From: Actinomycetes bacterium
GTDB taxonomy: Bacteria > Actinomycetota > Actinomycetes > S36-B12 > CAIYMF01
Direction: 5' to 3'
Assembly (NCBI GenBank): GCA_032123675.1
Contig: JAQBEX010000086.1
Location: 4,713 to 68,712 of the forward strand
DNA length: 64,000 nucleotides
The position numbers were made by a program, and so were the translations under genes. Position 1 is the stretch's first letter; each line of letters opens with the position of its first letter. Under the pieces are notes generated by a model. That model made no database searches. It saw only the letters and a list, made by a program, of their open reading frames with translations, and was not told the DNA's origin. Of this stretch, positions 26,290-42,028 are shown in pieces.

Positions 26290-26654
26290 CAGTTGCTGCC
26301 CCGCGAGAAGCGCTGGTCGAGCAGATCCGTGGTCGCCTGGACCTGGCGCGACCCGAGCCCACCGACCCGCCGGTTCTCGGCGATCCCGATGTCCCGCATC
26401 ATGTCCGCGGCCCGAGCGGGACCAATCCCCCGGAAGCTGGAGAGCAGGTCCACGACCTTCATCCGGGCCAGGATCCGGCCGCGCTCGTCGGCTCCCTGAG
26501 CGTCACCGAGCACCTCGGCGACCGGGATGCTGCCGTCAGCGAGCCCGGCACGCACCTGGGCGCGGACCTGGCGGGCCTGCACCCCGCGGGCAGCGGCCGC
26601 GGCCCGGTCCTGCGCAGAGAGCGGGGGCGGCGGAGGTCCCGCATGGGCGCTCAC
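26289..26654 (-). CDS. mihF: Integration host factor, actinobacterial type (mIHF/sIHF)
   Basis: The C-terminal block [37 protein letters not shown] is present. Its position between pyrF and gmk is conserved. The GTG start overlaps the pyrF stop. Confidence 0.85.
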
Positions 26655-27349
26655 AGCAGCTCCAGGGACTCGGCCAGCCGGCGGGCGGCGGCTCCCGGGT
26701 CAGCGGCGGCGGTGATCGGGCGACCGATCACCAGCAGGTCGGCCCCGGCGGCCAACGCCGCCTGCGGGGTGGCCACCCGGGCCTGGTCGCCGGTCGCGCT
26801 GCCCGCCCCCGCGACGGGCCGCACCCCCGGGGTGATCAGCGTGATGTCGGCAGGGACAGCAGCCCTGATCGCGGCCACCTCCTGGGGGGAGCACACGATC
26901 GCGCGGGCACCGGCGGACACCGCCATCCGGGCAAGTCGCACTGCTGCGTCCAGAGCCGGGCCGCGCAGGCCGACGGCCTCGAGGTCAGCCTCGGACAGTG
27001 AGGTCAGCACGGTGACGGCAGTGATCCGGGTATCCGGCAGTGCAGCAGCGGCAGCGTCGACCATGGCCGGGCCGCCGCTGGCGTGCACGGTGAGGTAGTC
27101 CGGGGTCAGCTCGGCGATGCTGCGCGCTGCCCCGGACACCGTGTTGGGGATGTCGTGCAGCTTGAGGTCCAGAAACAGCGCACATCCCGGGGCGGCCCTG
27201 CGAACCTCACCGACCACGGTGGCGCCGTCGCGCAGGAAGGTCTCCAGGCCCACCTTCATCACCGACACATGTGGGGCGGCAGAACCTGCCCACGAGATCA
27301 CCGTCTGCCGGTCGGGGCCGTCCAGGGCCAGTGCGATGGGTGCTCTCAC
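26651..27349 (-). CDS. pyrF: Orotidine 5'-phosphate decarboxylase
   Basis: Start at GTG 27349 (VRAPIALALDG), overlapping the pyrD stop (GTGA). The FLDLKLHDIPNT and VIGRPI motifs are present. Confidence 0.9.
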   Translation of the reverse strand: MRAPIALALDGPDRQTVISWAGSAAPHVSVMKVGLETFLRDGATVVGEVRRAAPGCALFLDLKLHDIPNTVSGAARSIAELTPDYLTVHASGGPAMVDAAAAALPDTRITAVTVLTSLSEADLEAVGLRGPALDAAVRLARMAVSAGARAIVCSPQEVAAIRAAVPADITLITPGVRPVAGAGSATGDQARVATPQAALAAGADLLVIGRPITAAADPGAAARRLAESLELL

Positions 27350-28359
27350 GGGGTGTTCTCCTGCGCAGCCCGGCGCGCGTCCTGGGCGGCGACGTGTCGG
27401 GCCTGCATCGTGTGTCCGAGGCCGACGGCATCCGACAGGGTCGCGAACCCCCGAGCAGCCAGGATGTCGCGCAGCTCGGCGGAGATCCGGGCCGGGGCGT
27501 GCGGATCGTTGAACACGGCGGTTCCGACCGACACCGCGCTGGCCCCGGCGAGCAGGAACTCGAAGGCATCCTGGCCCGTGCGGATCCCGCCCATGCCCAG
27601 GATCGGCACCCGCGGGAAGGCCGCGTGGACCTGCCACACGGCGCGCACGGCCACGGGACGGATGGCCGGGCCCGACAGCCCACCGGTCATGCCCCCCAGT
27701 GCGGGACGCATCGTGTCCGGGTCGATCACCATGCCCAGCAGCGTGTTGATCAGCGACACGCCATCAGCGCCGGCGTCGAGGACGGACTTGGCGATCGCCA
27801 CGATGTCGGTGACGTCCGGGCTGAGCTTGGCCAGCACCGGGACGTCCGGGGCCGAGTGCCGCCGCACGACCTGGACCACTGACGCCGCCGAGAACGGGTC
27901 GCAGGCGAACACCTGGCCACGGGACTCCACGTTCGGGCACGAGATGTTCACCTCGAGCGCGGCGATCCCGGGCTCGTGGCGCAGCCGCTGGGCGAGCTTC
28001 TGATACTCCTGGACCGAGCCACCAGCGATCGACACCACGGTGCGGATCCCGCGCTCGCGCAGCCAGCGCAGGTCCTTGGCGATGAACTCCTCGATACCCG
28101 GGCCCTGCAGGCCGATGGAGTTCAGCATCCCTGACGGGGTCTCCGCCATCCGCGGAGTGGGCCGCCCGGACCGGGGCTCGAGCATGATCGACTTCGTGAC
28201 GACCGCCCCGATGGCGCGCAGGTCCAGGAACGGGGCCAGCTCGCGTCCGGCGGCGGCGCATCCGGAGGCGGTCAGCACCGGGTCCGGCATCACGAGACGA
28301 CCCAGGGCCGTGGACATGTCCACGGAAGCCGGCCCCGGCACAGGCGTGCGCGCAACCAT
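27346..28359 (-). CDS. pyrD: Dihydroorotate dehydrogenase, class 1B catalytic subunit
   Basis: Start at ATG 28359. The NISCPNV active-site Cys loop and GIGGI-type FMN motifs are present. It is paired with pyrK upstream. Confidence 0.9.
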   Translation of the reverse strand: MVARTPVPGPASVDMSTALGRLVMPDPVLTASGCAAAGRELAPFLDLRAIGAVVTKSIMLEPRSGRPTPRMAETPSGMLNSIGLQGPGIEEFIAKDLRWLRERGIRTVVSIAGGSVQEYQKLAQRLRHEPGIAALEVNISCPNVESRGQVFACDPFSAASVVQVVRRHSAPDVPVLAKLSPDVTDIVAIAKSVLDAGADGVSLINTLLGMVIDPDTMRPALGGMTGGLSGPAIRPVAVRAVWQVHAAFPRVPILGMGGIRTGQDAFEFLLAGASAVSVGTAVFNDPHAPARISAELRDILAARGFATLSDAVGLGHTMQARHVAAQDARRAAQENTP

Positions 28360-29212
28360 CAGTGTCCCCCCGCCACGGGCGCTCCGAGGGTCCCGCCCGG
28401 CACCGTCCCGACGTCGGCCCAGCGCACGTCGCTGCCCCGGAACACGGGTCCGTCCGTGCATGAGCGGACCATCCGGGTGATCCCGTCAGCGCCCTGCACT
28501 GGCAGCACACAGGTCATGCACACGCCGATCCCGCAGGCCATGGCCTCCTCCACGGCGCACTGGCTGTGCGCCCCGGTGTCCGCGGCCACCGCAGCGACGG
28601 AAGCGAGCATCGCCATCGGCCCACATGCGTAGATGACATCGGCGTCCGAGGCGCGCACGATCTCAGCAAGTGGGTCGGTGACACGACCGCGGAGCCCGGC
28701 GGACCCGTCATCAGTGGTCACGGTCACCGACGCCGAGCTCCGCTTGGCCTCGAGGACGCCGAAGAGCCGATCCTCGGTGGCCGCCCCGAGGATCATGTCC
28801 ACCCGGCAGCCCCGCGCGCGGAGCGCCTCGGAGAGCATGAACAGGGGCGCGGCCCCGTAGCCGCCGGCGACCAGGACGCAGGCCACAGGCTCCCTGGGCA
28901 GCGTGAACGGCCGCCCGAGCGGCCCGATGACGTCGAGCTTGTCGCCGCGACGCCGATCAGCCAACCATCGGGTGCCCTTGCCGTGGGTGGCGAACACGAC
29001 CTCGACGGTCCCGCCAGTTGGCCCGCCCGGGGTGACCCGATGGATCGAGAAGGCCCGGCGCAGCACCATCCCCGACCCCTCCCCGCCGACAGCGATCGCG
29101 ACGAAGTGTCCCGGTCGGGTCGCCTCCGGGATCCCCGGGGCAAGCAGGGTGAGGTGGTGGTAGGCGCCGGTCCGGCGCAGGCCGACGACCTCGGACGTGA
29201 CCTGGACCGGCA

Positions 29213-29213
<1 letters not shown>
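28359..29213 (-). CDS. pyrK: Dihydroorotate dehydrogenase electron-transfer subunit (FAD/2Fe-2S)
   Basis: Start at ATG 29213 (MPVQVTSEVVGLRRTG), sharing one nucleotide with the carB stop. It carries RAFSIH and a C-terminal Cys cluster (CGIGVCMTCV...C). Confidence 0.85.
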
Positions 29214-32510
<3,297 letters not shown>

Positions 32511-32527
<17 letters not shown>

Positions 32528-32576
32528 CGATGGCCTCCCTCGGGGTGGGCTCGAACATGGCCGTGAGGATGGGCAT
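32511..32576 (-). CDS. Candidate 21-codon leader ORF (uORF) overlapping the carB start
   Basis: It reads ATG CCC ATC ... AAG TGA = [21 protein letters not shown]. An AAGGAG SD lies 6 nt upstream, inside the duplicated pyrR-leader hairpin. The stop lies 17 nt inside carB in the +1 frame. Confidence 0.4.
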
Positions 32577-32577
32577 C

Positions 32578-32618
32578 GCCCACTCCTTCCCCGCCTCGCA
32601 GGACGGCTTTAAAGGAGG
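32578..32618 (-). promoter_or_regulatory. PyrR-binding-like RNA stem-loop, copy A (upstream of carB)
   Basis: The minus-strand RNA is CCUCCUUUAAAGCCGUCCUGCGAGGCGGGGAAGGAGUGGGC. It contains GUCCnGnGAGGC, like the Bacillus PyrR binding-loop core. CCUCCUU can pair with the AAGGAG SD. It is a near-copy of 41431..41472. Confidence 0.6.
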
Positions 32619-32636
32619 CTTCCAGCAGGAGGCTTC
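32614..32636 (-). repeat. Tandem 9-nt direct repeat GAAGCCUCC-N5-GAAGCCUCC (two anti-SD-like CCUCC boxes)
   Basis: The plus strand reads ggaggcttc cagca ggaggcttc. It is found only in the carB copy of the leader. Confidence 0.6.
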
Positions 32637-32712
32637 AATTGCCCCCGAGCATACCGGGCGACCGGGAGGGCGACCGCGAGGCCCATCCGTTGCCAGGTAC
32701 TAGCCTGCCCCT

Positions 32713-33666
32713 GTGGCGCCCGCAGCAGAACCCACCGCCGGGGGTGCTTCCGCGCGGGTTGCGCAGGTGGCTGTCTCCGGCCATGACGGCGTCCGCGTAC
32801 GTGTGCAGGTGCACAACGCCGCAGCGCCGGCGGTCGTGCTGTTCCAGGCCGGTCTGGGGCTGCCGGCATCCGTGTGGCGCCCCGTCATCGCCCTGCTGCC
32901 CGACGCGTGCGCCCTTGTGGTCGACCGGCCCGGGCTGGCCGGGTGCCCCCCGTGGGACCGGGCACCGGGGTTGGCTGACCACGTGTCGCTGATCACCGAT
33001 GTGCTTGCCGCCTGCGCACCGGACAGCGCCGGCCCGGTGATCCTGGTGGGGCACTCCTATGCCGGGCTGATCGTTGAGGCATTCGCCCGGACGAACCCGG
33101 AACAGGTGACCGGCCTCGTGCTTGTCGATCCGTCGCTGCCGGCTCATGAGGTGGCCGCCAGGAGCCTGACCGAGCGGTTCCCCGCTGCAGCCCGCGCCCT
33201 GGCCGGCCTCGGCCTGCGACTCAGCCCGCGGCTCGGCCCGCAGCTCGGCCCGCGCGTGGGGCGATGGCTCGGGCTGGCCATGGCCGCCGGGGGCACGGTC
33301 GGGCTGGGGGCCACCGGGCCGACCGCGAGGAACCTGGCCGATGCCTTCGCCGACCCTGATCACCGGCGGGCCACGGTCGACGAGCTGCTGGGCATCGGCG
33401 CGCAGTCCGCTGAGCTGCTCGCGCTGGCCGCTCGGGAGCCGCTCGGTGACATCCCAGTGGTGATCATCGCCGCCACCCGCAGGGGCGGGTGGGCTCCGCT
33501 GCCCAAGCGCCGCTGGCCGCGGCAGCTCACCGACCGGGCCGCGGAGCTCGGGGCCGGCGCGCAGGTCGTCCCGGTGGCCGGCGCGCACCTGCTGATGGCT
33601 GATGCCCCGGCTGCGATCGCTGCGGTCATCGGCGGCCTCGTGGGTCGGCGGCCACCCGGAGGTTGA
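32713..33666 (+). CDS. Alpha/beta-fold hydrolase
   Basis: 317 aa. The nucleophile elbow is VGHSYAG and the HG-type oxyanion region is VLFQAGLG. It is the only plus-strand gene inside the pyr cluster. Confidence 0.8.
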   Translation: MAPAAEPTAGGASARVAQVAVSGHDGVRVRVQVHNAAAPAVVLFQAGLGLPASVWRPVIALLPDACALVVDRPGLAGCPPWDRAPGLADHVSLITDVLAACAPDSAGPVILVGHSYAGLIVEAFARTNPEQVTGLVLVDPSLPAHEVAARSLTERFPAAARALAGLGLRLSPRLGPQLGPRVGRWLGLAMAAGGTVGLGATGPTARNLADAFADPDHRRATVDELLGIGAQSAELLALAAREPLGDIPVVIIAATRRGGWAPLPKRRWPRQLTDRAAELGAGAQVVPVAGAHLLMADAPAAIAAVIGGLVGRRPPGG

Positions 33667-33693
33667 GCCCGGGGTCGGCTGCCGACGACGTCC

Positions 33694-36195
33694 TCAGAGC
33701 GTGGCCTGGACGTCCACGATGGATCCCTCGGGTGCGTACGGGACGGTGTTGCCCTCGATGGCGGCACCGTCCACGACGAGCGCGGCCCGGGCCCCGGGAG
33801 CCCCGGAGTTGGTGACAGTGATCCGATAGGTGGCTCCGCGCGCGACCCGGGTGACTTCCCAGTGCGGCACGTCGGGCCCGATCTGCGGGTCGATGATCAG
33901 GCCGTCGTACCCGGGTCGCACACCCAGCAGGTACTGGGACACCGTCACGAAGTTCCACGCTGCCGTGCCGGTCAACCACGAGTTCTTCGCCTCGCCGCGG
34001 CGGGGCGCCTCCTTGCCCGCGATCATCTGGGCGTAGTCGTACGGCTCGAGCCGGTGCACCTCGGAGATGTCCTCGCGGTAGGCAGGGGTGATCCGGCGGT
34101 AGTAGTCGAAGGCCCGCGCACCGCGACCGACCATGGTCTCGGCGATCATCACCCAGGGGTTGTTGTGGCAGAAGATGCCACCGTTCTCCTTGTAGCCCGG
34201 CGGGTACGTGGATACCTCGCCGAGTTCGATCTGGTAGCTCGTGTAGGCCGGGTACTGCAGGACCAGCCCATGCTCGGTGCCCAGCTTCTCGTTGACCGAG
34301 TCCAGGGCCCGGACCGCGGTGCTGCCGGCATGTGCCGGGTCGGTCGGGTCGGTGCTGGTCAGCCCGACCCCACCCATCACGGCCATCCCCTGCGACTCGA
34401 TCCAGATCTTGCCCTCGGCGTGCTCGTCGGTGCCGACCTTGTTGCCGTAGTAGTCGTAGGCCCGCAGGAACCACTCGCCGTCCCAGCCATGCTCGATCAT
34501 GGCCTCGCGCATCCGCGCCACGGCGGCACCGGCGTGCTCGGCCAGGGCCGGTTGCCCGGCCCGCTCGGCGATCTGCACGTACTCCGGGCCGATCGCGGTG
34601 AACATCGCGCCGATGAAGACTGACTCGGCCACCCCACCGGTCTGGTTCTCGGTGGTCTGGAAGGACTCCCCTGGTTCGGTGGAGAACGCATTGAGGTTCA
34701 GGCAGTCGTTCCAGTCTGCGCGCCCGATCAGGGGCAGCCCGTGCGGACCCAGGTTGGCGAGGGTGAACTCGAAGGACCTGGTGAGGTGGTCGAACAGCGG
34801 GGCAGACTGCGCCTGGTCATTGTCGAAGGGCACCTGCTCGTCGAGGATCGACCAGTCCCCGGTCTCCTTGAGATACCCGGCGACCCCCAGGATCAGCCAG
34901 AGCGGGTCATCGTTGAACCCGGTGCCGACCTCGTTGTTCCCGCGCTTGGTCAGCGGCTGGTACTGGTGGTAGGCCGAGCCGTCCGGGAACTGCGTCGCAG
35001 CGATGTCGAGGATCCGCTGCCGGGCCCGATCCGGGACCAGGTGCACGAAGCCCAGCAGGTCCTGGTTGGAGTCCCGGAAGCCCATCCCGCGCCCGATCCC
35101 GGTCTCGAAGAAGGACGCGGAGCGTGACATGTTGAACGTCACCATGCACTGGTACTGGTTCCAGATGTTGACCATCCGGTCGAGCTTCTCGTCAGTCGAG
35201 TGGACCGTGTACGTGGTGAGCAGCTGATCCCAGGAGGCACGCAGCTCGTCGAAGGCCGCTCTGGTCTGTTCCTCGGTCGCGAATGCACCCAGCAGCTCCC
35301 GGGCGCCCGACTTCTCCACGACCTGGCCGGCCGCGACGCCCGCCGACTCGTCCGCCGGCGCCCACTTGGCATCACGCGGGTTCTCGATGTACCCCAGGAC
35401 GAAGGTGAAGCTGCGCGACTCCCCCGGTGCGAGGTCAACAGCCAGATGGTGCGAGCCGATCGGGTACCAGCCAGAGGCGATCGAGTTGCCAGCGACGCCC
35501 GCACGCGGAACGGCCGCCTCACCCAGTGAGTTGTATGGCCCGACGAAGGTGTCGCGATCGGTGTCGAAGCCGACAGCCCGGGCGTTCACGCCGTACACGG
35601 CGTAGTGGTCGCGCCGCTCGCGGTACTCGGTCCGGTGGTAGATCGCCGACCCGTGGGCTGCGTTGAGGTCGACCTCCACCTCGGCCAGCGAGAGGTTGCG
35701 CTGGTAGTTGGTCTGGTCGTCATGGGCGTTCCACAGGGCGAACTCAAGGAACGAGAAGAGGCCCACCGACTTCGGCTCGGCCGAGTCGTTGGTCAGCGTG
35801 ACCTGCTGCACCTCGGCGTTGCGGTCCACGGGCACGAAGTAGAGCACCGACGTCGTCAGCCCGCCGCGCGACCCCGTGATCCGGGTGTAGCCCAACCCGT
35901 GGCGGGTCTCGAACGAGTCGAGCTCGGCCTTGACCGGCATCCACGACGGGCACCAGACGTCGCCGCCGTCATTGACGTAGAAGTACCGACCGCCGGCATC
36001 ATTGGGGATGTTGTTGTAGCGGTAGCGGGTCAACCTGCGCATCCGCGCATCCCGGTAGAACGTGTACCCGCCGGCGGTGTGTGAGATCAGCGAGAAGAAG
36101 TCCTGCGATCCCAGGTAGTTGATCCAGGGGTACGGGGTGCGCGGCGTCGTGATGACGTACTCACGGGCAGCATCGTCGAAGTGACCGAAACGCAT
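33694..36195 (-). CDS. GH94 cellobiose phosphorylase (cellobiose/chitobiose phosphorylase family)
   Basis: Start at ATG 36195 ([29 protein letters not shown]). Long blocks match my recollection of Cellulomonas/Cellvibrio gilvus-type cellobiose phosphorylase ([28 protein letters not shown]). Confidence 0.9.
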
Positions 36196-36311
36196 GGGGT
36201 GACTCTCTCTGGGCGGCGAGGATGCGAGGGCGCCGACCCCGGGCCAGCGCAGCGTCCCGACCATACCGCCGGGACGTTGCCCGATGCCGGGCGCAACCCG
36301 GCGTCACGGTC

Positions 36312-36878
36312 CTAGTCCGTGACCATCCCCTTCTCGAACAGGACGGCGAGGCCGGCGCGCGCTTCGCCCTCAGCCGCACGGACCCGTTGCTGCATCTCTC
36401 GGGCGGCCGCAAGTCGTTCGGCTGCCGCCTGCTCAACCGCCAGGCAGGCCTCGACCCCCTGCGTGCGATCGAGGGCGATCGCCGCCTGGTCGGCGTGGTA
36501 GCCCTGCACCTCACCAGCGGCGAGCTCGACGGCCCGGGCGAGCATGTACCGGTAGGCAGCCTGCACCTTCTTCGGCGTGGTCTTGCGCCGCAGTCCCGCC
36601 ACCTCCTCGGGCAGGGCCGAGCGCATGAAGACCAACGGGTCGGATCGGTAGCGCTGGTTCTCCGCCTCCTCGCGGGCCCGCGCGAGCTCCTCCTGCGCTG
36701 CGGCCAGCGCCAGCTCGGCCTCACGCACGGCGGCGGCGGCGGCCTCGACGTGGGGGGCGAACCGGTCGACCAGGGCCTGCGTCAGTCGCAGTGCCTCTGC
36801 GGAGTTCCCCTGCCCGCCGGGCGGCGCTTCGGGTGCCTGCCCCGATTCCGGGGCAGCGGACTCATTGCTGTCGGTCAT
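36312..36878 (-). CDS. Hypothetical Ala/Glu-rich (coiled-coil-like) protein
   Basis: Start at ATG 36878 (MTDSNESAAP), with a GAGG SD 6 nt upstream. No recognisable domain. Confidence 0.5.
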   Translation of the reverse strand: MTDSNESAAPESGQAPEAPPGGQGNSAEALRLTQALVDRFAPHVEAAAAAVREAELALAAAQEELARAREEAENQRYRSDPLVFMRSALPEEVAGLRRKTTPKKVQAAYRYMLARAVELAAGEVQGYHADQAAIALDRTQGVEACLAVEQAAAERLAAAREMQQRVRAAEGEARAGLAVLFEKGMVTD

Positions 36879-36943
36879 GGACAACCTCGTCGTTGGCGAT
36901 CGGGAAGGACATGGTCTCACCTCCCTGCCGGGTCACCCCGACA

Positions 36944-38113
36944 TCAGGCCGGGGCCCGCTGGGCGATCATCAACTCGGTGAACCGGTCGAAGAGGTAGGC
37001 GGAGTCGTGTGGCCCGGCCGCCGCTTCTGGGTGGTACTGCACGGAGAAGGCCGGCGCATCGAGGCACCGCAGCCCCTCCACGACGTCGTCGTTGAGGCAC
37101 ACGTGGCTGACCTCGACCCGGCCGAACTCCGTGTCCGACACCAGGTCCAGGGGCGCGTCGACCGCGAACCCGTGGTTGTGCGCGGTGATCTCGACCCGGC
37201 CGGTGGCCCGGTCGGAGACCGGCTGGTTGATGCCCCGGTGGCCGTAGCCGAGCTTGTAGGTCCCGAATCCGAGTGCCCGGCCGAGGACCTGGTTGCCGAA
37301 GCAGATGCCGAAGACCGGGATCCGCGCGGCCAGCAGGGCCCGAACCTGCGCGACCGCGTGGTCGGCCGTCGCGGGGTCACCCGGACCGTTGGAGAAGAAC
37401 ACGCCCACCGGCCCCTCGATCGCCCCGGCCCGGGCAACCAGCTCCTCGGGGAGGATGCCGGCCGGGAGCACGTGGACGCACATCCCACGCTCGGCCATCC
37501 GGACCGGCGTCATCGTCTTGATCCCCAGGTCGACGGCCAGGACCGTGGCGATCTGCTGGCCCACGGGCTCGATGACGTACTCCTGCGCCGTGGTCACCTC
37601 GTCGGTCAGGGCGGCGCCGATCATCGGCGGGCTGGCCAGCACCGTGGCATGCATCGCGGCGAAGCCCTGCTCGGCCTGGGCCCCCGAGAAGATCCCTGCC
37701 CGCATGGCACCCCGCTCGCGCAGGTGCCGGGTCAGCGCGCGGGTGTCCACGCCGCTGATGCCGACCACGCCAAAGCGCTCGAGCTCCGCGTCGAGGCTCC
37801 TCGTGGACCGCCAGTTCGAGGGCCGACGCGCGGGATCGCGCACCACGTATCCAGCCACCCAGATCCGGCTCGACTCCGGATCCTCGTCGTTGACGCCGGT
37901 GTTGCCGATGTGCGGCGCGGTCATCACGACGACCTGGCGGTGGTAGGAGGGGTCGGTCAGCGTCTCCTGGTAGCCGGACATGCCGGTGGAGAACACCGCC
38001 TCCCCGACGGTGGCGCCCACCGCCCCGTAGGCCTGGCCGGAGAAGGTCCGGCCGTCCTCGAGCACCAGCACGGCCGGAGCCGGCGACGTGGCCGTGGGGT
38101 TGATCGAGGTCAT
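36944..38113 (-). CDS. carA: Carbamoyl-phosphate synthase small (glutaminase) subunit
   Basis: It has the N-terminal [16 protein letters not shown] block and the GATase triad region (GICFGNQ, HNHGFAV). Confidence 0.95.
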
Positions 38114-39965: not shown

Positions 39966-41472
<1,507 letters not shown>

Positions 41473-41539
41473 TCGTCGGGTATCGACGTCGGGGACCATC
41501 CTAGCCACGGCCGGGCCGCGCCCGACGCAGACCCACGCG

Positions 41540-42028
41540 TCAGTCGATGGTGCGCCGGGCGTCCGGGTTCAGCACGCCCCAGCCCACGAACTGGTCGGCC
41601 AGCGCACCGGGCGCCTCGTCGTAGATCACGGCCAGGGTGCGCAGGTCGTCCTGGCGGATCGACAGGATCCGTCCGTTGTAGTCGCCCCGCTGGGCCTGGA
41701 TCGCCGCCACGTAGCGCGCGAGTGGGCCGGCCTTGGCCGAGGGCGCCTGCCCGAGGCGTTCCAGGTCGATCACCAGGCGGGGCGGCGGCTCGCTGATGGC
41801 AGCAGATGCCGGCTCCGGCAGCAGCTCGGCCATCGGCACCCCGTAGAAGTCGGCCAGCTCAGCCAGCCGCTGGACGGTGACGGCGCGGTCACCGCGCTCG
41901 TAGGAGCCGACGACAACGGCCTTCCAGGTGCCCTGGGACTTGGCTTCCACGCCCTGCAGGGACAGGCCCTGCTGGTTGCGCACGGCCCGAAGCTTTATCC
42001 CCAGCGCCCTCGCGTAGTCGTTCGACAT
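41540..42028 (-). CDS. bldD: BldD-family developmental/c-di-GMP-responsive transcriptional regulator
   Basis: It reads LGIKLRAVRNQQGLSLQGVEAKSQGTWKAVVVGSYERGDRAVTVQRLAELADFYGVP (XRE HTH). The C-terminal domain carries RGD-x8-RQDD (QRGDYNGRILSIRQDD). It is adjacent to pyrR, as for SCO1489. Confidence 0.9.
   Translation of the reverse strand: MSNDYARALGIKLRAVRNQQGLSLQGVEAKSQGTWKAVVVGSYERGDRAVTVQRLAELADFYGVPMAELLPEPASAAISEPPPRLVIDLERLGQAPSAKAGPLARYVAAIQAQRGDYNGRILSIRQDDLRTLAVIYDEAPGALADQFVGWGVLNPDARRTID

Follow-up and report, generated by a model that had tools for sequence, protein, structure and literature searches.

A predicted PyrR-binding hairpin in front of carB at the break point of a split actinobacterial pyrimidine operon

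The pyrR leader of Mycobacterium smegmatis is reportedly subject to PyrR-dependent translational repression (Fields and Switzer 2007, J Bacteriol 189:6236, listed in PMC13328217), and the pyr leader of Thermus strain ZO5 is reported to contain a leader peptide (Van de Casteele et al. 1997). In Lactococcus lactis, the leaders of pyrR, carB, pyrK, and pyrE carry PyrR-binding domains (PMC4829306), and pyrRPBcarA and carB form separate operons (PMC10986495). Three PyrR binding loops, BL1 to BL3, are given for the pyr operon of Bacillus subtilis in the passage of PMC6524683 that refers to Turnbough and Switzer 2008. The locus described here lies in a 64-kb stretch of DNA from an Actinomycetes bacterium; the whole stretch analyzed is referred to as the window. 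It contains a hairpin of the PyrR-binding type at pyrR (copy B) and a near-identical one ahead of carB (copy A), at the point where an insert separates carA from carB.

Structure of the locus and of the two hairpins

Read along the minus strand, the locus comprises bldD, copy B, pyrR, pyrB, pyrC, a bPH_11 gene, and carA, followed by an open reading frame (ORF) without a Pfam or NCBIfam match, a GH94 gene, an alpha/beta hydrolase gene on the plus strand, copy A, carB, pyrK, pyrD, and pyrF (Table 1). Apart from the break, the pyr cistrons overlap by 1 to 4 nt, so that the cluster can be read as a series of coupled cistrons. The pyrR product matches the NCBIfam PyrR equivalog NF003547 with 283 bits (cut-off, 230) and the PDB PyrR chains 1W30, 1A3C, 1NON, and 1UFR with E values of 1e-54 to 1e-57; its gene is located 9 kb upstream of copy A. 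The gene immediately upstream of the pyrR leader, in the same orientation, is a bldD homologue (NF050110, 280 bits; 41540-42028, minus strand), and the pyk-bldD-pyrR neighborhood is found in all close relatives except L087 (relatives are designated by L numbers; see below).

Table 1. Positions of the features discussed (window coordinates unless a relative is named)
Feature	Position	Strand	Basis
pyrR, 178 aa, presumed trans-acting RNA-binding regulator	40894..41430	minus	NF003547, PDB
Copy B, canonical pyrR leader hairpin, loop CCGUGA	41435..41473	minus	RF00515 and R1
Start-codon hairpin B, GUGGG-CGUG-CCCAC	41422-41435	minus	
carA, C-terminal tail replaced at the insertion point	36944..38113	minus	Pfam; tails compared with L084, L085, L109
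Insert separating carA from carB	32654..36943	mixed	Pfam
ORF without Pfam or NCBIfam match, between carA and GH94	36312-36920	minus	
GH94 phosphorylase	33694-36264	minus	Pfam
GH94 in relatives	L082 6334-8835; L083 6895-9396; L107 6168-8669; L108 6473-8866		
Alpha/beta hydrolase	32713-33666	plus	Pfam
TATGCT, a -10-like hexamer with the variant TATGAT in some relatives; candidate promoter for the carB unit	32648..32653	minus	conservation
Upstream GAAGCCTCC, first of two tandem copies	32628..32636	minus	invariant in 14 leaders
Second GAAGCCTCC, forming the hairpin 5' arm	32614-32622	minus	
Copy A, PyrR-binding-type hairpin	32581..32619	minus	RF00515, R1, RNAalifold
Start-codon hairpin A, UGGGC-GAU-GCCCA	32568-32582	minus	
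Upstream ORF (uORF), 21 codons, ATG 6 nt after the SD	32511..32576	minus	read 32576->32511
GGGAGG, the SD of carB itself, within the uORF and 6 nt ahead of the carB ATG (32525-32527)	32534..32539	minus	read directly
carB, 1104 aa, first real gene of the downstream chain	29213..32527	minus	Pfam CPSase_L domains
Chain carB-pyrK-pyrD-pyrF	about 26651-32527	minus	order and overlapping cistrons as in L081; pyrK-like match

Apart from the plus-strand sequence CGCCCACTCCTTCCCCGCCTC, present at 32577 and 41430, no 21-mer is repeated within the window when both strands are considered. This sequence belongs to two minus-strand segments, copy A (GCCUCCUUUAAAGCCGUCCUGCGAGGCGGGGAAGGAGUGGGCGAUG, 32619->32574) and copy B (ACCUCCUUUAACGACCGUCCCGUGAGGCGGGGAAGGAGUGGGCGUG, 41473->41428), which share 30 nt at 93% identity in a repeat search and 48 of 57 identical columns in a global alignment extending from CCTCCTTTAA to ATGCCCAYCC. 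The repeat is therefore real and far beyond what chance would produce. An earlier note, made from the letters of this DNA, had reported this near-identical pair and its 21-nt exact block, and it had placed both segments correctly. The alignment takes in about the first 10 nt of the downstream ORFs before it stops (ATGCCCATCC versus GTGCCCACCC), and a motif search for CCGTCCNGNGAGGCGG with 0 mismatches found copies A and B only. Both copies consist of a lower stem, an A-rich bulge, an upper stem, and a hexaloop with the core GUCCnGnGAGGC; in copy A, these are the lower stem CUCCUUU/GAAGGAG, the bulge AAAG, the upper stem CCGUC/GGCGG, and the loop CUGCGA. The note had described the substitutions between the copies as clustered in the predicted apical loop (CUGCGA versus CCGUGA), and the two loop positions concerned also vary in other actinobacterial sites. 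The Shine-Dalgarno sequence (SD) AAGGAG of copy A (32583-32588) lies within the 3' arm of the hairpin and pairs with CUCCUU. In copy B, the corresponding AAGGAG occupies 41436-41441, and the GTG start of pyrR follows 5 nt downstream at 41430; this pyrR leader site is present in all relatives examined. Just 3' of the PyrR-type hairpin, the start codon of both copies is enclosed by a further small hairpin, and an analogous GUCC...AUGGAC pairing is seen in Streptomyces leaders; it may add to the occlusion of the start codon.

The assignment to PyrR was examined with covariance models. In E-value mode on short stretches, the Rfam model RF00515 (PyrR) matched copy A with 28.8 bits (E = 0.04) and copy B with 29.8 bits (E = 0.03), with the binding hairpin fully aligned in each case; both scores are below the Rfam gathering score of 54 bits, and a scan of the whole window at gathering thresholds gave no match. 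Since the canonical pyrR leader fails this threshold equally, it has no discriminating power here. Model positions 1 to 40 were aligned with high posterior by cmscan for both copies, and the greater part of the model beyond the hairpin, in our reading the Bacillus antiterminator/terminator portion, was skipped in both. RF00515 was the sole Rfam family with E < 1 at either locus. The RF00515 search of both loci that the earlier note had proposed thus matched the hairpin, below the gathering score.

For a second model, R1, the training set comprised 21 sites of the pyrR-leader type from other actinobacteria and excluded the window. These sites were collected by regular expression in the carB loci of 80 species, taken from the matches listed, among which the best relatives were 84 to 85% identical; closer ones were found via the carB protein. 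R1 gave 46.6 bits for copy B and 36.8 bits for copy A (E of about 3e-8 in the window), and the next best match in the window, with filters off, scored 14.1 bits. Across actinobacteria, 9 of the 14 hairpin pairs change on both sides, in an alignment that was fitted to the model, and none of 500 shuffles reached the observed value. Within the clade, RNAalifold detected no covariation at copy A, as the hairpin does not vary there. All positions that are invariant in the actinobacterial PyrR site are retained in copy A, whose short 2-nt bulge linker is also found in canonical pyrR leaders such as L050. Folding, which the earlier note had also proposed, gave a divided result: RNAalifold recovered the hairpin of copy A de novo, but the minimum free energies of both hairpins and of longer leaders did not differ significantly from those of shuffles at a GC content of about 70% (hairpin z = -0.6 and +1.0), and folding stability is consequently not used as evidence here. 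As judged from sequence, these comparisons support a PyrR-site-like hairpin in copy A, with an SD forming its 3' arm.

The leader of carB and its upstream ORF

Copy A is located in the 5' leader of a pyrimidine unit, 54 nt before the carB ATG and downstream of the conserved -10-like box. Its layout is that of Mycobacterium-type translational repression, with the SD in the 3' arm and an ATG 6 nt downstream. Features of an attenuator were absent: no terminator-like site was found on the minus strand between 32400 and 42000, and no U-rich stretch is present 3' of the copy A hairpin. It had been stated that the sequestered SD stands 5 to 6 nt before a start codon, which is correct for the ATG 6 nt after AAGGAG; however, this ATG (32576) opens a uORF and not carB. 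Control of carB must hence be indirect, since the start codon regulated by copy A belongs to the uORF.

The carB start at 32527 is in a different frame from the uORF, whose TGA stop lies 17 nt past the carB ATG. The uORF ATG is present in 14 of 14 leaders (the relatives are described below), and the stop is located 17 nt past the carB ATG in all 13 complete leaders. Its length is 21 or 31 codons, as three leaders contain a 30-nt (10-codon) in-frame insertion with the overlap kept, and all 14 peptides differ from one another. The arrangement is thus that expected of a translationally coupled leader ORF, with its own SD and start, a stop overlapping the carB start, and conservation of this layout. 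A test of the openness of the uORF frame for selection gave no signal; the other two frames contain 1 and 0 stops over 14 sequences, so that the open frame is not evidence by itself.

In the 13 aligned copy-A loci, conservation starts abruptly at CCGGTATG(C/A)TC, and the DNA upstream is unalignable between subclades. The conserved stretch after the -10-like box forms a 5' UTR with the tandem GAAGCCTCC, the hairpin, the SD, and the ATG, and the DNA upstream of the box and the middle of the uORF are freely variable. Scans of the relevant strand for sigma-70 consensus promoters and for terminators returned nothing; given the empty promoter scan, the candidate promoter is proposed from conservation only. 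All 14 copy-A leaders have the upstream GAAGCCTCC unchanged, and copy B lacks it. The motif GCCUCC is complementary to the carB SD, GGAGGC. In constrained folds of 11 leaders with the hairpin held, the upstream GAAGCCUCC took inconsistent partners and did not mask the carB SD consistently, and RNAalifold detected neither a helix nor covariation between the two.

Distribution among relatives and origin of copy A

Relatives were found via carB protein homologues and are contigs of uncultured actinomycetes, some of whose records are labelled Candidatus Nanopelagicales. L081, L082, L083, L107, and L108 (carB identity, 93 to 98%) have the order carA, GH94, variable cargo, carB, with a pyrR leader at 44 to 47 bits and a copy A at 36.7 to 36.8 bits. 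L084, L085, L086, and L109 (86 to 91%) have contiguous carA-carB and the pyrR leader alone. In L087 (87%), carA and carB are split by maltokinase and FTHFS genes, and no PyrR site precedes carB. Among these protein-ascertained relatives, copy A is thus present in five of five with the GH94 split, in none of the four with contiguous carA-carB, and not in the one with the other split, which bears out the expectation that relatives sharing the split would also carry the leader copy. The split in L087 (5163-10001) is independent, with a maltokinase-like gene and an opposite-strand FTHFS gene, and no pyrR-pyrB-pyrC was found upstream of carA in this relative.

A pattern scan of metagenomes yielded nine more copy-A leaders and ten copy-B leaders (L088-L106). 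As the search pattern fixed most of the site, its conservation in these loci is circular, and for the 9 of the 14 copy-A leaders obtained in this way only the flanks count; statements on conservation are based on the protein-ascertained L081-L083, L107, and L108 together with the flanks.

The GH94 gene is found at the same place in L081, L082, L083, L107, and L108. It lies only 2 to 110 nt after carA in L082, L083, L107, and L108; in the window and L081, an extra ORF of about 190 to 200 aa (L081, 6352-6918), which is confined to this subclade and has no Pfam or NCBIfam match, is located between the two. Because of the close spacing after carA, GH94 is probably co-transcribed with pyrR-pyrB-pyrC-carA, and the pyrimidine promoter and PyrR site would then govern a sugar phosphorylase gene as well; the GH94 product matched no NCBIfam equivalog. 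The slot between GH94 and the carB leader is variable (window, 32654-33693; L081, 9534-9900; L107, 8790-9804; L108, 8863-9900). It holds an opposite-strand alpha/beta hydrolase gene in the window and L082, a YgaP-like gene and an ECF sigma factor gene in L107, a 99-aa ORF in L108, and nothing in L081 and L083.

The contiguous relatives reveal what preceded the break. Their carA ends 17 nt inside carB in L084, L085, and L109, with the tails DDPQPREAAHAATH (L084), SQRKEVVDAEAH (L085), and GVQQEAADAQAR (L109), each followed by the stop, and the carB SD and junction at this overlap are the same as in the window. The tail of the uORF is homologous to these carA C termini (the ends compared were PQPREAAHAATH in L084 and QQEAADAQAR in L109, each before the stop), and the DNA match runs through the carB SD and ATG. 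The uORF is accordingly a chimera of a pyrR-leader start (ATGCCCAYCC) and a relic carA 3' tail. Since the end of carA differs in the window and the ancestral-type tail has stayed on carB, carA was severed by the insertion about 12 codons from its 3' end. The earlier note had placed copy A exactly where the operon is broken, and this is true to the base, as the uORF behind copy A ends with the relic tail.

Its further proposal, that the leader had been duplicated, is upheld by the flanks. Copies A and B share a lineage-specific CCTCC 5' arm and the 3' flank GGAGTGGGC(G)(A)TGCCCA, which the outgroups L001 and L006 lack, having CATCC...GGAGGTCC or GGAGGTAA instead. These common lineage-specific flanks identify copy A as a duplicate rather than an import, and on the strength of this sequence comparison it is a lineage-specific duplicate of the pyrR leader.

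Selection on copy A is indicated by comparison with L083. Over the first 400 codons of carB, the proteins of the window and L083 are 94% identical, whereas at 4-fold sites the identity is only 0.50 (n = 214), close to saturation. Copy A is nevertheless identical at 36 of 36 positions between the two and is therefore under selection. Across relatives with similarly saturated synonymous sites, copy A is identical or differs by 2 nt, and 14 loci agree in the leader flanks, which no search pattern had included. The analysis thus establishes the site and where it came from, as well as its conservation and its link with the break.

Further sites adjoining carB were not found in the loci of the 80 species, among the matches listed. 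Second PyrR sites do occur at the carA ribosome-binding site (RBS), in the pyrC-carA spacer, of the Nocardioides-like L030 (3953-3993) and L068 (8533-8573). The earlier note knew of no carB-proximal second site in actinobacteria; this holds for sites beside carB in the 80 species loci listed, but second sites as such are not unique, given those at carA. A PyrR site at carA is also present in a Propionibacteriaceae metagenome-assembled genome (L008, 8784-8823). A literature search for PyrR sites at actinobacterial carB or carA found nothing relevant, and no description of the second carA site of the Nocardioides-like loci or of the carA site of the Propionibacteriaceae genome was found.

Proposed mechanism and alternative explanations

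We consider it likely that copy A is a functional PyrR operator, derived from the duplicated resident leader, that controls carB via the chimeric uORF; it would probably keep the orphaned half of the operon under pyrimidine control. PyrR binding, a promoter, translation of the uORF, and its coupling to carB are the steps that we infer. In outline, the pyrR leader of the lineage was duplicated with its hairpin, SD, start codon, and about 3 codons, a GH94-carrying insertion having severed carA about 12 codons ahead of the stop. Fusion of the leader copy in frame to the leftover carA tail gave the 21-codon uORF, which retains the carB SD and the end 17 nt inside carB that carA had. A separate promoter, with TATGCT as the putative -10 element, would produce the carB-pyrK-pyrD-pyrF mRNA. 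When uridine nucleotides are high, PyrR would bind the hairpin, AAGGAG would be locked in the stem, and the uORF would not be translated. Initiation at carB would depend at least partly on ribosomes from the uORF, by termination-reinitiation or by unmasking of the carB SD, so that carB and the overlapping cistrons behind it would fall together. The insertion broke the chain of pyr cistrons headed by the PyrR-controlled pyrR start, and copy A with the uORF would restore a PyrR-controlled head that feeds the ancestral carA-carB junction. Several points speak against this model, among them that carB has a strong SD of its own, at which ribosomes could start regardless of the uORF, that the predicted folds contain no consistent structure masking this SD, that no promoter consensus was found, that the hairpin energies are no better than those of shuffles, and that the hairpin shows no covariation within the clade. 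A broader formulation, which we offer tentatively, regards the locus as a broken operon that has been given a new head, the chimeric uORF serving as an adaptor that relays pyrimidine repression to carB-pyrK-pyrD-pyrF via the ancestral overlap. In this formulation, the GAAGCCUCC of the 5' UTR might be a second anti-SD that closes the carB SD unless the uORF is translated.

A working PyrR site might also act on carB with the uORF being incidental, through 5'-end destabilisation, Rho-dependent polarity, or a long-range fold in which GAAGCCUCC masks the carB SD. That carB retains its own SD would fit this, as would the invariance of the upstream GAAGCCTCC in 14 leaders and its complementarity to GGAGGC, and one constrained fold, that of the window, does pair the upstream motif with the carB SD. 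The pairing was, however, recovered neither in the other homologues nor by RNAalifold, and the ATG spacing and the 17-nt overlap are kept in every leader, even after the 30-nt insertion, which makes this explanation unlikely, if deserving of attention. A generic role of the hairpin in SD sequestration, or recognition by some other factor with no relation to PyrR, would agree with its unremarkable thermodynamic stability, yet no Rfam family other than PyrR matched at E < 1, no invariant position of the actinobacterial PyrR site has been lost, and the hairpin stands ahead of a pyrimidine gene in a genome with a pyrR gene; we judge this very improbable.

The two remaining alternatives concern the history of copy A and are, in our view, scarcely credible. 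If copy A were a decaying, non-functional by-product of the GH94 rearrangement, its R1 score below that of copy B (36.8 versus 46.6 bits) would find an explanation, but decay is at odds with a site that has changed by at most 2 nt over the distances described above and with the retention of the -10-like box, leader, SD, ATG, and overlap; the 2-nt bulge linker, moreover, occurs in canonical pyrR leaders such as L050. An origin by convergence or horizontal import instead of duplication of the resident leader might be suspected because the PyrR core is short and strongly constrained, so that some similarity is expected, and because copies A and B have unrelated 5' UTRs upstream of CCTCC. Against this, the identity reaches beyond the part covered by R1 into GTGGGCG(A)TGCCCAYCC, and the CCTCC arm is specific to the pyrR leaders of this family and absent from the outgroups. 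The preferred reading thus remains control of carB by copy A via the uORF.

The locus offers a clean, datable case of regulation surviving the break of an operon, in which the site of insertion, the duplicated regulator, and the reused end of carA can all be read, and it can be compared with sisters whose operon is intact (L084, L085, L086, L109) and with one whose split is of another kind and unrepaired (L087). For Actinobacteria, translational control by PyrR would extend from a single site at pyrR to several sites and an indirect uORF route, knowledge of PyrR itself being unchanged by the finding. The approximately 150-nt segment would also be a compact construct for studying a protein-controlled uORF that drives a downstream gene by coupling. 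Among the described systems, that of M. smegmatis is the type to which copy B belongs: the 3' arm of the PyrR hairpin is the SD of the first cistron, there is no terminator, and the downstream cistrons overlap and are presumably co-regulated. Its cluster has one site, at pyrR, whereas here a second site heads the distal half and lies over a uORF. In Thermus, a short leader ORF likewise has its RBS overlapped by the PyrR site, and expression of the downstream pyr genes reportedly hinges on translation of this ORF; leader translation reportedly prevents formation of a terminator there, whereas the uORF described here overlaps the carB start, so that the link would be translational coupling, and combines the start of pyrR with the tail of carA. 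Lactococcus, with carB apart from carA and under a PyrR-binding leader of its own, provides the precedent for a carB-proximal site, but it is a Firmicute that employs transcription attenuation by antiterminator and terminator, with no uORF and no evidence of recent leader duplication. Bacillus likewise has several PyrR sites in one pyr cluster, some of them internal; those are attenuators with terminators, whereas no terminator-like site was found here and the site overlaps an RBS. The Nocardioides-like L030 and L068 share with the window two PyrR sites per pyr cluster, the second ahead of the carbamoyl-phosphate synthetase genes, but in these the second site is placed directly on the carA start of an unbroken cluster, with no insert and no uORF. 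Set against these systems, a carB-proximal site in an actinobacterium, its traceable origin in operon repair, and its proposed action via a chimeric uORF appear to be new.
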